A stretch of DNA of 64,000 nucleotides from a phage, in the sequence record OZ317122.1; one strand, 5' to 3'. The position numbers were made by a program, and so were the translations under genes. The notes beneath the pieces were generated by a model. It did no database searches. It was given only the letters and a program-made list of their open reading frames with translations, and was not told the DNA's origin. Shown piece by piece: positions 31,591 to 52,855 of the stretch. Every line of letters begins with the position of its first letter. Position 1 is the first letter of the stretch.

Positions 31591-32007
31591 TTAAATGTAA
31601 ATATTTTTGCCGTAATACTTATACCAGTGTGGCTTCATTAAAATTTTTTCATCGAGTCGTTGTTGACTCAACTTAATAGCTGATTTGCATGGATTATAAT
31701 CATTTTTCCATTCTACTGGAATATCGCTGATGTCAGGAACTTCAGTATCTTTTATACTGAACCCGCGTTTTAAGCATTCCGTTATAATGTCCGATTGACG
31801 CTTTCGCAAAAATTCTAACTTATCGTAAAAGAAAGTAACATGACCAGAACCTAAAATAAATTTAGAAGATATTTTAAAATCTTTAACGCGCTTACCGTTT
31901 GCCACATGCTTACGAACTATACCAAAAACACGCGGCAATTCACGGTATTCTGCGATTAAATGTTGATCAGCAAGTTCAGATACTAAAGTCAAATTAATAC
32001 GAGTCAT
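31591..32007 (-). CDS. denV: endonuclease V (pyrimidine-dimer DNA glycosylase)
   Basis: 138 aa; [17 protein letters not shown]...; matches remembered T4 endo V. Confidence 0.85.
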
Positions 32008-32021
32008 TTTATCCCTCCAAG

Positions 32022-32597
<576 letters not shown>

Positions 32598-35694: not shown

Positions 35695-35763
35695 TTATTT
35701 CTCCGTTTTCTGTATTTGTTTTGATAAGTCTATAATAACACCGTCCTTGGCGTTTGTACACAA

Positions 35764-36027
35764 TTATTTCATATTATTGAAATATTCTTCTGCGATTTCA
35801 TCGTTATCATGGTAAACTTTAGAAGACAGTTTAACATAACCTTCAGCAGTGAACATGTTAATCACAACCTTTACAGTATACCACTGACCATCTTCATTAC
35901 CCATTACTGCATAGGTTTCAAACATCGGATGGTCAGGACCGATAACTTTAATATCATTCACTGTACGACCGAAATCTTCTGAAACACATTTCATAAAGAA
36001 GTTGAACAGTTCGCCGTAATTATCCAT
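35764..36027 (-). CDS. hypothetical protein
   Basis: Trimmed to ATG at 36025-36027 (GGAGA upstream). Confidence 0.45.
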   Translation of the reverse strand: MDNYGELFNFFMKCVSEDFGRTVNDIKVIGPDHPMFETYAVMGNEDGQWYTVKVVINMFTAEGYVKLSSKVYHDNDEIAEEYFNNMK

Positions 36028-36064
36028 TTCATTCTCCAAGTTGTTTTTGTATCAGTAGTTGATA

Positions 36065-36115
36065 GTTGTATAGTACCATGGAAGAACAGGGATGTAAACA
36101 GTTTTGTGAAAAAAT
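36065..36115 (-). promoter_or_regulatory. T4-type early promoter
   Basis: gttgatagttgtatagtaccatgg...gtaaacagttttgtgaaaaaa signature. Confidence 0.6.
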
Positions 36116-36231
36116 TTTTTAAAAAGTTTTAGGGAATTCTAGGGCAGGGAGGGGCAATTAAAAGATAGGATAATATATTATAAAGGGTAGAAACTAAATG
36201 ATGTCTAGAGAGGCCCGGAAAGGCCTAGATA

Positions 36232-36261
36232 CCAAAAAGCCCCAACCTTTTGGTCGGGGCT
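36232..36261 (-). terminator. rho-independent terminator
   Basis: Minus-strand RNA gccccgaccaaaagguuggggc followed by UUUUU; near-identical to 36790..36819. Confidence 0.7.
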
Positions 36262-36268
36262 AAGAATG

Positions 36269-36742
36269 TTATTTGATTTGTTTAGCAGACCAAATGCGGT
36301 CTTTAATAATTTTTTGGATGTCTTCAACATACTCAAGAGAGTGAACATGTGGGTTATCTTTGAAACTATAAGCACGAGCTAGCTTTTGGCCTTCAGTTTT
36401 GATTACTAAAAGCTCTTTAAGGATAGCTTCATATTTGGAGATAATTCCTTTAACAATATTTTTCTCTTGTGTGACTTTAGGATCTGCTTTAGGAGCAGGT
36501 TTACCTGAAGCCTTTGCAAAAGCAGCTCCAGTAGCAACTAAACTTTTCCAAGCCATACTAACTGCATTCCCTGTAAATCCTTCGGCTTTCATATCACGAG
36601 CAAATTGGAATCGTGATTCATCGGAAGCATCTTTATAGGAATATTTACCCGCGGCAATGGCAGCTTTTGCAACAGCTTGAATTTCAGTGCTAGATGCTTC
36701 ATTTAACACCGCTTCATTTAAAAATTGAGTATATGATTTCAT
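36269..36742 (-). CDS. internal-protein-like capsid-targeted protein (157 aa)
   Basis: N-terminus MKSYTQFLNE resembles T4 internal-protein leader with LxE protease-site motifs; own late promoter; flanked by terminators. Confidence 0.55.
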   Translation of the reverse strand: MKSYTQFLNEAVLNEASSTEIQAVAKAAIAAGKYSYKDASDESRFQFARDMKAEGFTGNAVSMAWKSLVATGAAFAKASGKPAPKADPKVTQEKNIVKGIISKYEAILKELLVIKTEGQKLARAYSFKDNPHVHSLEYVEDIQKIIKDRIWSAKQIK

Positions 36743-36778
36743 CTTATTTCCTGTTTTAATTCGGGGTTTTAATATACT

Positions 36779-36786
36779 TATTTATA
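36779..36786 (-). promoter_or_regulatory. late promoter TATAAATA
   Basis: Plus-strand tatttata about 37 nt upstream of ATG at 36742. Confidence 0.6.
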
Positions 36787-36789
36787 CTA

Positions 36790-36819
36790 AAAAGCCCCAA
36801 CCTTTCGGTCGGGGCTAAG
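36790..36819 (-). terminator. rho-independent terminator ending the tRNA/stable-RNA transcription unit
   Basis: Minus-strand RNA gccccgaccgaaagguuggggc followed by UUUUU. Confidence 0.7.
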
Positions 36820-36820
36820 C

Positions 36821-37131
36821 CTTGCGGCAACCTTGTCGGGGTTCCACCTGCTAAGGCAAGTGTTTGTACGAAACGCCGGGATTCGAACCCGGTTATTAAG
36901 CAGTTGACGCTACTCAATATTTTTAAAAGGCCATATCTCGACCATATCCGAACGTTCCGTCAAAAACGCTACTCGGCTTACGGCAAAGATATTTCCTCGA
37001 ATCGATAATTCGGTGCGCCGTTTCTGCTGTGATATAAGGGGACATTAACAAAACATAAAGATTTATTAATACCAGTCCTTAAACAGGGAACATCAGTCCG
37101 ACGACTTGCCGGTAGCGACCCGGCTTCTTGT
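36821..37131 (-). ncRNA. candidate stable RNA region between tRNA-Arg and terminator, containing a tRNA-like T-arm
   Basis: No ORF; minus-strand ccgggTTCGAATcccgg with pairing flanks cggaacg/cgtttcg but no proper anticodon arm. Confidence 0.3.
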
Positions 37132-37207
37132 CTGGTCGAGGCAGTAGGGATCGAACCTACGACCCAGGACTTAGAAGGTCCTTGCTCTTCCTTCTGAGCT
37201 ATGCCTC
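37132..37207 (-). tRNA. tRNA-Arg (anticodon TCT)
   Basis: Cloverleaf: acceptor CGAGGCA/TGCCTCG, anticodon loop CTTCTAA, T-arm GTAGGTTCGATCCCTAC, CCA encoded. Confidence 0.85.
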
Positions 37208-37211
37208 GTAT

Positions 37212-37286
37212 TTGGCGGACGTGATAGGATTCGAACCTATAACCAATCGCTTAACAGGCGATCGCTCTGCCATTGAGCTACACATC
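37212..37286 (-). tRNA. tRNA-Asn (anticodon GTT)
   Basis: D-stem GCTC/GAGC, anticodon stem ATCGC/GCGAT with loop CTGTTAA, T-arm ATAGGTTCGAATCCTAT, CCA encoded. Confidence 0.8.
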
Positions 37287-37290
37287 CAAA

Positions 37291-37377
37291 TTGGTGGGGA
37301 GTGGTGGAGTCGAACCACCCGAGTCGCAATGACAATGGATTTACAGTCCACACCGCTACCTCTACGGGATAACTCCC
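37291..37377 (-). tRNA. tRNA-Tyr (anticodon GTA), long variable arm
   Basis: Anticodon stem GTGGA/TCCAT with loop CTGTAAA; T-arm GGTGGTTCGACTCCACC; 87 nt; D-arm pairing less clean. Confidence 0.7.
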
Positions 37378-37387
37378 CAAATTAATT

Positions 37388-37462
37388 TGGTGGCCCTGGG
37401 TGGAATTGAACCACCATCTGGCGATTATGAGTCGCTTGCTTGAACCTTCCAGCTACAGGGCC
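37388..37462 (-). tRNA. tRNA with CAT anticodon (Met or lysidine-type Ile, as T4 tRNA-Ile)
   Basis: Anticodon loop CTCATAA; T-arm GGTGGTTCAATTCCACC; CCA encoded. Confidence 0.8.
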
Positions 37463-37463
37463 T

Positions 37464-37539
37464 TGGTGCTGATTGACGGAATCGAACCGCCGACCTTCTC
37501 ATTACAAGTGAGTTGCTCTACCTACTGAGCTAAATCAGC
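37464..37539 (-). tRNA. tRNA-Thr (anticodon TGT)
   Basis: D-arm TAGCTCAGTAGGTAGAGC, anticodon loop CTTGTAA, T-arm GGCGGTTCGATTCCGTC. Confidence 0.85.
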
Positions 37540-37544
37540 AAAAC

Positions 37545-37634
37545 TGGCGGAGGCGATAGGATTTGAACCTATGAGTCGCCGGAGCGACTGCCGGTTTTCA
37601 AGACCGGTGCATTAAACCACTCTGCCACGCCTCC
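37545..37634 (-). tRNA. tRNA-Ser (anticodon TGA), long variable arm
   Basis: Anticodon stem CCGGT/ACCGG with loop CTTGAAA; long variable arm; T-arm ATAGGTTCAAATCCTAT. Confidence 0.85.
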
Positions 37635-37636
37635 AG

Positions 37637-37710
37637 TCTCCGTGGCAGGATTTGAACCTACGACATTCTGCTCCCAAAGCAGACGCTCTACCAAACTGAG
37701 CTACACGAAG
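37637..37710 (-). tRNA. tRNA-Pro (anticodon TGG), 3' CCA not encoded
   Basis: Anticodon loop TTGGGAG; acceptor CTTCGTG/CACGGAG; only 2 nt separate it from tRNA-Ser. Confidence 0.8.
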
Positions 37711-37720
37711 TAAATTAAAT

Positions 37721-37794
<74 letters not shown>

Positions 37795-37799
37795 AAATT

Positions 37800-37886
37800 T
37801 GGTGCGAGAAGTGGGACTCGAACCCACAAGGAAATCATTCCGCAGCATTTTAAGTGCTGTGCCTTTACCAATTTGACCATTCTCGC
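37800..37886 (-). tRNA. tRNA-Leu (anticodon TAA), long variable arm
   Basis: Anticodon stem CAGCA/TGCTG with loop CTTAAAA; T-arm GTGGGTTCGAGTCCCAC. Confidence 0.85.
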
Positions 37887-37892
37887 GCTATA

Positions 37893-38501
37893 TTATTTAT
37901 TACGTGAAAAAGACTGTTCTATCAATTCTGGACACTTTCGTTCTATCCATTTTCTAGCTTTTTGTGGGCTTATACCTATTATTTTAGCAGCTTTACTAAC
38001 CCATCCAAATTTAGAATAATCGATTTTAACTAATTCTTCGTAAATTTCATCAGTTAAAATCTTTTCATTAATATTTACCAGTAAATGATATAATTTATTA
38101 TCATTAGCAATTTTAATGAATCTTTTATAGTTTCCGCCTTTACTTAAACCTAATGAAGTAATTGCAGATGATATAGTAGCCGAATTTAATAGTGCGTTTA
38201 AAATTTCTTCATCACTAACATTATAACGCTTTCTATTATTTTTAATATTTTTACCAGCAAAAGTATCAGTTTGCGAATGGCAATTTGGACATAATAATCT
38301 TAAATTTGATTTAAGATGATTTTTGTTATTTCCATCAATATGGTCTAATTGTAGAACAATATGCTTATTTTGCCATTTTGAAATTTTACAAATTGCACAC
38401 TCATATGGAAAAATATTTTCTTTTATTATTTTGTCTTTTAGCTTTCCTGTACTAAAATTTGGATGTTTTCCTTCAAAAATTTCAGCTAATTTAGTATCCA
38501 T
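37893..38501 (-). mobile_element. freestanding HNH homing endonuclease adjacent to tRNA cluster
   Basis: HNH/zinc motif LDHIDGNNKNH...LRLLCPNCH; trimmed to ATG at 38499-38501; stop 7 nt from tRNA-Leu. Confidence 0.7.
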
Positions 38502-38611
38502 AATATGATTCCCAATTATTAACAAAGGCTCTTAAGCAAGAACCCTTGATGATAGAGGGTATTAATCAGTGCGATATGAGTTAATAATAACAAATAATTC
38601 TTAAAGCATAT

Positions 38612-39507: not shown

Positions 39508-39560
39508 GATAGGGTAATAGTATCACTACCCTATCTAAAAGTAAACTTATTTTTTACGAA
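39508..39560 (-). promoter_or_regulatory. T4-type early promoter with -10 region inside a 7-bp inverted repeat
   Basis: gataggg taatagtatcacta ccctatc then gtaaac at 39541. Confidence 0.5.
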
Positions 39561-39780
39561 AAATTGATTTATTTTCTGCTGCCCATTTTTCAATAACTGC
39601 AGCAGGACCAGTAACAACAATTTTATCACCGTAATCTTCTGCGGCGAGTTGACCGAAATTATCTAATGCATCACGAAGAACTCCATGAGGCATTTCACCC
39701 ATTTTATCTTTCTTGCCAGTGTAAATAAACTCAACTTTTACATCAGCAGTTTCAGCAATAAATTCTTGGTAAGTTTTCAT
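39547..39780 (-). CDS. internal-protein-like capsid-targeted protein (77 aa)
   Basis: Starts MKTYQEFIAE, the canonical T4 internal-protein leader with IAE protease-site motif. Confidence 0.6.
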   Translation of the reverse strand: MKTYQEFIAETADVKVEFIYTGKKDKMGEMPHGVLRDALDNFGQLAAEDYGDKIVVTGPAAVIEKWAAENKSIFRKK

Positions 39781-39807: not shown

Positions 39808-39865
39808 TAGGGTAATAGTATCACAACTAAAACCCTATGTAAACAACTTTGTGAAATTATTTTAA
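39808..39865 (-). promoter_or_regulatory. T4-type early promoter
   Basis: atagggtaatagtatcacaactaaaaccctat then gtaaacaactttgtgaaattattttaaatc. Confidence 0.5.
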
Positions 39866-40114
39866 ATCTTCTAATCGTTTCTTCATCTTAGAACCATTTT
39901 TAGCAATTTCTCCTGCATCGGAGCATAATGCTAAAAGTGCTTTAACTTTAGTTTGGTCTCCTTTAAAAGATGAAGGATCGACCGCAGCAGCAAGTTCTTT
40001 AATACGAGAGAAAAGACGCTCAGCTTCAGCTAAAGCCATTCCAAGCTTTACTTCCATACCGTGGGAAGATTCAGTGATAGTAGTTTTTGTAGCAAACTCT
40101 TTGAAAGTTTTCAT
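39857..40114 (-). CDS. internal-protein-like capsid-targeted protein (85 aa)
   Basis: Starts MKTFKEFATKTTITE; AGGAAA ribosome-binding site. Confidence 0.55.
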   Translation of the reverse strand: MKTFKEFATKTTITESSHGMEVKLGMALAEAERLFSRIKELAAAVDPSSFKGDQTKVKALLALCSDAGEIAKNGSKMKKRLEDLK

Positions 40115-52823: not shown

Positions 52824-52846
52824 GAGCCCATGGGCTCCCTTTTTCT
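52824..52846 (+). terminator. rho-independent terminator after gene 8
   Basis: gggagcccatgggctccc followed by TTTTT. Confidence 0.65.
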
Positions 52847-52847
52847 T

Positions 52848-52855
52848 TATAAATA
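52848..52855 (+). promoter_or_regulatory. late promoter TATAAATA for gene 9
   Basis: Exact TATAAATA about 25 nt upstream of gene 9 ATG. Confidence 0.6.

Follow-up and report, generated by a model that had tools for sequence, protein, structure and literature searches.

We analyzed a stretch of 64,000 nucleotides of phage DNA from the sequence record OZ317122.1 (hereafter the window), and focus on a small gene, called gene A below, that lies between two near-identical hairpins downstream of a cluster of tRNA genes. The window belongs to a Tequatrovirus, and its positions 35700-37200 match Escherichia phage vB_EcoM-fFiEco06 at 100% identity. Every gene of the region is carried by the minus strand. 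In the order of transcription, nine tRNA genes are followed by the small stable RNA genes rnaD and rnaC, the upstream hairpin (copy 1), a late promoter box of the T4 type (TATAAATA), the motif AGGAAA, gene A, the downstream hairpin (copy 2), the promoter of e.8, and e.8 itself (Table 1). Some relatives of the window carry other genes at this site, named B and C in the following, and others carry none.

Table 1. Features of the gene A locus in the window, listed in the order of transcription
Feature	Position	Strand	Remarks
Nine tRNA genes	37886..37133	-	Upstream of rnaD and rnaC
rnaD, small stable RNA gene	~37011-37131	-	Coordinates transferred from the T4 and RB5 annotations
rnaC, small stable RNA gene	~36867-37005	-	Coordinates transferred from the T4 and RB5 annotations
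Hairpin copy 1 (upstream repeat unit)	36784..36819	-	Stem-loop 36816..36793, AGCCCCGACC-GAAA-GGTTGGGGCT, then TTTTT
Predicted late promoter box TATAAATA (T4-type)	36779..36786	-	2 nt past the terminator T run; ATG 36 nt on
Shine-Dalgarno-like AGGAAA	36747..36752	-	4 nt ahead of the gene A ATG; read from the sequence
Gene A, 157 aa, internal-protein-like	36269..36742	-	Open reading frame; phrog_2280 member
Gene A leader, codons 1-15, MKSYTQFLNE,AVLNE,A	36698..36742	-	Capsid-targeting type; two [LI]-x-E motifs
Hairpin copy 2 (downstream repeat unit)	36229..36264	-	Stem-loop 36261..36238, loop AAAA, then TTTTTGGTAT
e.8 early-type promoter, TTTACA-17-TACTAT	36070..36098	-	Downstream of hairpin copy 2
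e.8	35764-36027	-	Next gene after the cassette

The hairpins belong to a unit of 36 nt that a repeat search found twice, with 34 of the 36 positions identical between the copies. Its 27-nt core, AAAAGCCCCAACCTTYYGGTCGGGGCT, matches the window only at 36235-36261 and 36790-36816, and no third copy was found in the 64 kb even when 3 mismatches were allowed. The number of matches expected from 100 shuffles was 0.00, and we rejected a chance repeat on these grounds. An earlier note on this DNA, written from the sequence alone, had described a near-identical 30-nt repeat bracketing a single gene. The repeat is real, and so is the gene, a minus-strand open reading frame (ORF) that is exactly as described. 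The upstream copy was correctly placed, whereas the downstream one, put at 36232..36261, was shifted by 3 nt (the 30-mer as written occupies 36235..36264), and only one of the two positions given as variable, the T/C of the loop, differs between the copies.

Both copies have the features of intrinsic terminators, i.e., a G+C-rich stem, a short loop, a run of T, and a position at the end of a transcription unit. On the minus strand, each was called terminator-like, with a stem of 10 bp that includes 7 G-C pairs, a loop of 4 nt, and TTTTT. The 56-nt RNA segments containing them fold with energies of -24.9 and -21.7 kcal/mol (z ~ -3.8), and the ends of transcription units at which they sit are those of rnaC and of gene A. 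The record NC_054919 annotates both copies as terminators, and the G4507 record does so for copy 1. In T4, the orthologous hairpin is present in a single copy after rnaC, and the end of tRNA-cluster transcription in this phage is presumed to lie past the species I RNA gene (PMC2330249). We regard copy 1 as the putative terminator of the tRNA-rnaD-rnaC transcription unit, while copy 2 would terminate the gene A transcript and insulate e.8. The natural variants of the hairpin in Tequatrovirus (GA to AG, C to T) retain pairing via G-U wobble; the TTCC variant of Mosigvirus causes internal mismatches in the stem. In mobillu (contig L009), both copies around the Mosigvirus gene A carry TTCC (transcribed strand, ~1815-1836 and ~2358-2379).

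The final bases of the copy 1 unit (GTAT) overlap the late promoter box. The earlier note had proposed a late promoter at this place, and the box is indeed there as TATAAATA. We rejected the octamer match as significant by itself, its count in the window not being above chance, so that the prediction rests on position and on conservation across genera. In 10 of the 10 Tequatrovirus gene A loci examined, the hairpin and its T run are followed after 1-2 nt by an exact TATAAATA at the matching position, with the ATG 35-40 nt further on, and AGGAAA is kept in all of them. HX01 and KpV477 have the layout with the exact box too, ahead of gene C and of an A-like gene, respectively, and a variant with 7/8 matches, AATAAATA, precedes gene B and the Mosigvirus gene A. 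The composite of hairpin, T run, late promoter box, and leader-bearing gene is kept in three genera, and the sequence past the box diverges. No -35/-10 pair was called on the minus strand at 36743-36790. From this predicted promoter, gene A would be transcribed late. The window has only one other composite of a hairpin and TATAAATA, at ~52826-52855 on the plus strand (AAGGGAGCCCATGGGCTCCCTTTTTCTTTATAAATA). It lies 24 nt ahead of a 288-aa ORF and its sequence is unrelated to the rnaC hairpin.

Gene content of the site in related phages

The locus was surveyed by sampling 741 matching phage records, and examples of each state were mapped; the states described below were seen across ~600-740 related genomes. 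The earlier note had proposed an alignment against T-even genomes, and this comparison gave what it had anticipated: the hairpin is kept, and the content behind it varies. In T4, a single hairpin stands between rnaC and e.8, with no gene in between, and the window corresponds to T4 plus a unit of 555 bp, which comprises the predicted late promoter, gene A, and one hairpin copy. The same empty state, with one hairpin from rnaC to e.8, is found in T2, T6, RB5, N2, and Ec3-ASingh. Gene A alone, in the order hairpin, TATAAATA, A, hairpin, is carried by the window, G4507, ASO78A, and G8. Gene B alone, which encodes 187-188 aa and lies between the hairpin and a different one, is found in ESh24 and Pu-Krd-SF2. 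Finally, ECML-134, PYps5T, TOPO13, ZN18, and phiE142 carry both genes (hairpin, A, hairpin, B, and B's own hairpin), such that all four combinations of presence and absence of A and B were found. In Mosigvirus, the rnaC-type hairpin is followed by a variant of gene A (mobillu) or by gene C (HX01, 208 aa). The A-like gene of KpV477, a Jiaodavirus, lies behind a stem that is different but has the same TTTTTAGTATAAATA continuation; this gene is itself split, leaving a 78-aa ORF (contig L011, 1995-2231).

A census of the phage collection, whose numbers are partly estimated from samples of 60 rows, gave 512 records with gene A (382 at ≥80% identity), 165 with gene B, and 144 with gene C. The junction running from the end of A through the hairpin into the sequence upstream of B is contiguous in 126 records, which implies ~39 records with B only and ~256 with A only. 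Empty sites were found in 11 of 60 evenly sampled records, and natural isolates are among them (ACG-C40, SHFML-26, and phi25-307). A scan of IMG/VR for the hairpin gave 5 loci, too few for a census. Like the genes of internal proteins (IPs), gene A is non-essential and polymorphic: it is absent from T4, T2, T6, and RB5, and the states A, B, A+B, and C exist.

Gene A seems to be old at this site. Its protein is ~75% identical to that of Mosigvirus and ~50-58% identical to those of Klebsiella phages, and the values for the product of the neighboring gene e.6, 88% and 61%, run in parallel. Given this parallel divergence and the conserved position of gene A in three genera, it is probably ancestral at the site, with the empty sites being losses. 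Gene B has a different profile, with 95-99% identity in 164 of its 165 records (e.g., contig L005, 1169-1732) against 50-100% for gene A across genera, which suggests a recent acquisition that spread through Tequatrovirus.

One might instead take the empty T4-like site as ancestral. Gene A would then have entered the single rnaC terminator, either when a mini-circle carrying the hairpin integrated there or through an illegitimate insertion, and the hairpin would have been duplicated in the process. The excision of modules flanked by promoter-early stem-loops (PeSLs) as mini-circles has been proposed to be reversible (PMC2839356), and the very low diversity of gene B (165 records) is as expected for a recent gain and spread. 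We nevertheless find such a gain of gene A quite improbable. It is at odds with the presence of gene A behind the same composite of hairpin and late promoter, at the same position, in Tequatrovirus, Mosigvirus, and Jiaodavirus, and with a divergence that parallels that of a core-like neighbor, both of which indicate that it is the empty sites that are derived.

Leader-bearing products of genes A, B, and C

The product of gene A is basic (pI 9.5) and helical, and the pI values of the three proteins are 9.4-9.5. The three start with a leader of the type of T4 internal proteins (MK[ST]Y..F[LI].E): MKSYTQFLNE,A in A, MKTYAEFLTE,A in B, and MYTFNEFLAE,T in C, to be compared with MKTYQEFIAE,A in IPII and IPIII of T4. 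In A, B, and C, the [LI]-x-E motif ends at residue 10, in the same register as in IPII, IPIII, and the window's ip6. The L-N-E motif of gene A that ends at residue 10 occurs again ending at residue 15, and both are predicted sites of the gp21 protease. Among the window's 610 ATG-to-stop frames of ≥40 aa, only 3 start in this way: A, ip5, and ip6. Gene A is under strong purifying selection (dN/dS 0.01-0.06), which argues that it is a real gene.

The three proteins are named "hypothetical protein" in every source, and a literature search by ORF, accession, and locus names turned up no mention of them. Pfam scans of A, B, and C gave nothing significant. An AlphaFold2 model of A, of moderate confidence (pLDDT 73, pTM 0.47), predicts that the leader is disordered and that a helical N-domain is joined by a Pro/Lys linker to a long helical hairpin. 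Searches with this model by Foldseek against BFVD and PDB returned only matches to its own family or non-significant helical bundles (e.g., ferritin, E > 0.4), and a function of A could not be inferred from its fold.

All three are full-length matches to phrog_2280, a family listed with unknown function (E-values of 2e-60, 1e-53, and 1e-57 for A, B, and C). They also have an architecture in common, namely the leader, a first domain, a linker rich in Pro, Lys, and Ala, and a helical C-terminus. Despite the common family, we do not claim homology of their mature parts, since BLASTP and hhalign confirm only the leader and weak matches: the direct and profile comparisons of A with B detected the leader alone, and the similarities of C to A (E 5e-5) and to B (E 0.026) are weak. 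Homologs of A in Klebsiella phage KP01 (P0054) and Yersinia phage fHe-Yen9-01 (P0053) associate a conserved A-type N-domain with a different C-terminal half, which has a DTPDLY motif in common with gene C. This combination suggests mosaicism at the level of domains in the family.

Could the hairpin be the relic of a tandem duplication? A, B, and C would then be diverged paralogs, and unequal crossing-over would have copied the whole promoter-gene-terminator unit. The full-length matches to phrog_2280, the similar architecture, the weak similarities to C, and the motif that links the A-like proteins of Klebsiella phages to C all fit with such an origin. Still, we deem it improbable: the comparisons of A and B go no further than the leader, the terminator of B has a different stem, and near-identical hairpins next to genes that can hardly be aligned would have to be much younger than these genes, or be undergoing homogenization.

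Exchange of gene content at the hairpin

The ends of the presence/absence of gene A always fall inside the hairpin, both before e.8 and before B. The hairpin downstream of gene A continues either into the flank of e.8 (…GGGGCTTTTTGGTATCTAGG) or into the sequence upstream of B (…GGGGCTTTTTAGTTTGAATCAC), and in genomes with B only, this upstream sequence comes directly after the rnaC hairpin. The terminator of B has a different stem (CCCTATC-TAAAT-GATAGGG) and the same 3' end, GGGCTTTTTGGTATCTAGG, the common part being GGGCTTTTT(G)GT, such that only 9-12 nt are repeated around B. Gene C ends in an unrelated terminator, and the A and C alleles of Mosigvirus become homologous again at the GTTTAC early promoter that belongs to the following gene.

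The empty sites have at least two hairpin haplotypes. Those of T2, T6, and RB5 have a GACC arm and a TTTTTGGTAT tail. The one of N2 combines an AGCC arm with a TTTTTAGTAT tail; this is exactly the haplotype that the upstream copy has in an A-bearing contig (L017), here fused to the flank of e.8, and the single copies of N2 and T4 both look hybrid. Where two copies are present, a variant typical of the lineage is found in both (TTCC in Mosigvirus, GACC or AGCC in Tequatrovirus), and this covariation suggests conversion between copies or repeated exchange. The flanks group the genomes differently on the two sides. Next to e.8, the empty sites of T4, T2, T6, and RB5 form one group, with N2 and Ec3-ASingh elsewhere. 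Next to rnaC, the empty T2 differs at 2 of 248 nt from the A+B phages PYps5T, TOPO13, and ZN18, RB5 is 2 nt away from the window, and T6 is 4 nt away from Pu-Krd-SF2, which has only B. The haplotype switches lie around the hairpin, between ~-67 (a limit set by single informative sites; the robust one is -219) and +17 to +30, in a mapping based on few genomes and few informative sites between -219 and 0. In the hairpin of Ec3-ASingh (contig L022, transcribed strand, ~615-636), the stem is perfected (AACC/GGTT) and the loop is inverted (TTTC for GAAA), the signature that would be expected of template switching in a quasi-palindrome.

We consider it probable that gene A forms a self-contained late-gene cassette at a polymorphic locus of the internal-protein type, downstream of the tRNA/rnaD/rnaC operon. 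In this model, copy 1 would end the early/middle transcript of the tRNA genes and rnaC, and the adjoining TATAAATA box would drive late transcription of gene A by the gp55-modified RNA polymerase, as proheads assemble. The leader MKSYTQFLNE,AVLNE,A would target the protein to the prohead core, and the gp21 protease would remove it after Glu10 and/or Glu15. The basic and helical mature protein (~142-147 aa) would be packaged with the DNA and then injected. There, it would probably counter host defenses, by analogy with Ip1-3 of T4, each of which inhibits a distinct GmrSD type IV restriction enzyme (PMC12373910). Copy 2 would end the gene A transcript ahead of the early promoter of e.8. From the genetic point of view, the 555-bp module flanked by direct repeats of 36 nt would be a unit that recombination or replication slippage between the copies may delete, leaving one hybrid hairpin as in T4, T2, T6, RB5, and N2. 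The same short homology would mark the boundary between presence and absence of A beside B, and the module would come back by the same reaction run in reverse or through two crossovers in the flanks. Recombination in T4 is reported to need less than 50 bp of homology (Singer et al. 1982, as cited in PMC2839356), and ORFs flanked by PeSLs are described as excising as mini-circles (PMC2839356). The interpretation of the earlier note is largely supported, with limits. It had proposed that the duplicated terminator could be a recombination site, and the boundaries of exchange do coincide with the hairpin; a special recombinogenic role of the hairpin is not separated from the effect of a border of heterology. 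It had also proposed that internal-protein genes could be swapped in this way between related phages. Genes A, B, and C, all with an IP-type leader, do alternate at the site, but A is the only one with a copy of the hairpin on each side.

The main rival explanation takes the hairpins as functional terminators and nothing else. They would be required to insulate the individual transcription units. The polymorphism would result from homologous recombination of the ordinary kind between long, conserved flanks in mixed infections, and from co-conversion initiated by homing endonucleases of the neighboring tRNA cluster (SegB, or the HNH endonuclease of the window), and the hairpin would just be the last homology before a large heterology. 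T-even genomes are indeed highly mosaic all over this region, and the haplotype classes on the rnaC side follow the variants of the tRNA cluster. SegB gives ~99.6% inheritance of the T4 tRNA region in crosses of T4 with T2L (PMC2330249), T4, T6, and Pu-Krd-SF2 all have segB within their tRNA clusters, and in the window the HNH endonuclease gene is found ~1.1 kb upstream of the cassette. Besides, B and C are exchanged with no use of the hairpin at their downstream end. We think this explanation unlikely, because it accounts neither for the origin of an empty allele with a single, precisely hybrid hairpin, nor for the existence of at least two hairpin haplotypes at empty sites, one of which is the upstream copy of an A-bearing genome, nor for the lineage-specific variants present in both copies (e.g., TTCC in Mosigvirus). 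Yet the data do not separate hairpin-mediated exchange from an edge of heterology at which crossovers and co-conversion tracts stop.

Other points have to be weighed against the late-gene cassette at an IP-type locus. The boundaries of an insertion or deletion are expected at the last homology under any mechanism, and neither B nor C has the same hairpin at its downstream end. The TATAAATA octamer occurs 13 times in the window for 10.6 +/- 3.2 expected, i.e., at chance frequency in AT-rich DNA. The repeat is a hairpin unit of 36 nt, whereas that of PeSLs is ~100 bp, and it has only two copies in 64 kb instead of forming a dispersed family of many copies. The partial estimation of the census and the small number of sites in the breakpoint mapping also count here. 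As for the protein, there is no informative Pfam or fold match for A, and its mature part has no detectable similarity to known internal proteins (phrog_2280 for A, against phrog_5341 for IPIII and phrog_7857 for IPII). This last point does not exclude that A belongs with them, since internal proteins are not defined by homology of their mature parts.

Similar cassettes and other internal-protein loci

The concept of such exchanges is already published, as cassettes bounded by promoter-early and promoter-middle stem-loops (PeSLs and PmSLs; Arbiol et al. 2010, PMC2839356; Comeau et al. 2014, PMC4122927) and as shuffling at loci of internal proteins. What is new here is that the cassette has a predicted late promoter, and that its site is an IP-type locus not labeled so in the annotations, with three candidate injected proteins that T4, T2, and T6 lack. 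As in PeSLs and PmSLs, a terminator stem-loop immediately precedes the promoter (here the hairpin, TTTTT, 2 nt, and TATAAATA), the copies enclose an ORF that is small, non-essential, and located in a plastic region where a relative has a single element instead, and the cassette would be transcriptionally insulated. The stem with its G/C tract resembles the type of stem-loop found in RB49 and phi1. In contrast, the predicted promoter of gene A is of the T4 late type, neither sigma-70-like early nor Mot-dependent middle, and the term "late promoter" is absent from both papers on PeSLs. The autonomous promoter-gene-terminator unit, inserted between two resident transcription units that it leaves undisturbed, is also reminiscent of morons. 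Here, however, the terminator is duplicated and marks the ends of the indel, and the gene would be expressed late in a lytic phage, not from a prophage.

The internal proteins of T4 are described as encoded in two loci (PMC12373910), and the shuffling of the ipI locus and of the ipII/ipIII locus is attributed to Repoila et al. 1994 in the articles that cite this work (PMC12373910, PMC3012670, and PMC4122927). Like the genes of these loci, A, B, and C are non-essential, encode basic products, have the leader alone in common, and vary in number and identity between close relatives. They differ from them by occupying a third site, between rnaC and e.8, and by being annotated only as hypothetical. 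The boundary element differs too, since it is a terminator hairpin with a late promoter here and a motif made of an early promoter and an inverted repeat at the ipII/ipIII site, the principle being the same with another regulatory element. When compared with Ip1, Ip2, and Ip3 of T4, the A protein has a similar leader and register of the cleavage motif, and it is likewise small, basic, and accessory in its distribution. The mature parts of these proteins have no relation to A in sequence or in PHROG family.

The two classical loci of the window also differ from those of T4. The ipII/ipIII locus is empty, with 32008-32066 left between e (32067-32561) and denV (31591-32007). It keeps one GTTTAC…CTAGAATTGTGA…TCACA motif, where T4 has three (before ipIII, ipII, and denV). 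At the ipI locus, ip6 and ip5 are found on the minus strand at 39547-39780 and 39857-40114, each preceded by a promoter of the early type (GTTTAC…TACTAT) overlapping a stem-loop, a PeSL-like arrangement unlike the predicted late promoter of gene A. The set of internal-protein genes of the window (ip5, ip6, and A) has no member in common with that of T4 (ipI, ipII, and ipIII). The occupied ipI site and the empty ipII/ipIII site show the same kind of shuffling there.

A broader proposal is possible, and we put it forward tentatively, at somewhat less than an even chance: the site between rnaC and e.8 would be a third, so far unrecognized T-even IP locus, whose A/B/C family of injected proteins (phrog_2280) was lost by the laboratory phages T4, T2, and T6 and is toggled by a PeSL element in late-promoter form, a "promoter-late stem-loop". 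If so, A, B, and C would be new candidate inhibitors of GmrSD-type or other defenses, and the hairpin would be a genuine hot spot of recombination. Internal proteins are an injected first line of counter-defense in T-even phages, and three further leader-bearing genes outside the two classical loci provide a list of candidate anti-defense proteins. The genes A, B, and C occur in hundreds of natural genomes of Tequatrovirus, Mosigvirus, and Jiaodavirus, and the model phages are without them. The published model of shuffling by stem-loops and promoters, established with early and middle promoters, would be extended to a late-promoter cassette. Finally, the natural series of alleles (empty, A, B, and A+B) could be used to gauge how short terminator repeats drive the loss and exchange of genes.

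A few observations concern the neighborhood of the cassette. The HNH gene (minus-strand ORF 37893-38525; phrog_14736, E 6e-124) replaces a tRNA-Gln of the near-identical fFiEco06, whose homology with the window stops at 37889 and resumes at 38508. This delimits an insertion at 37890-38507 that is likely of the homing type. The ASO78A record lists the promoter of e.8 as a T4 early promoter. No Rfam family matches the hairpin, rnaC, or rnaD. The GenBank record MG781190 places two coding sequences of hypothetical proteins (36756-36920 and 36923-37066) over rnaC/rnaD and hairpin copy 1, and both are probably spurious. In the G4507 record, the tRNA-like rnaC is labeled tRNA-Lys (contig L023, 1169-1262).

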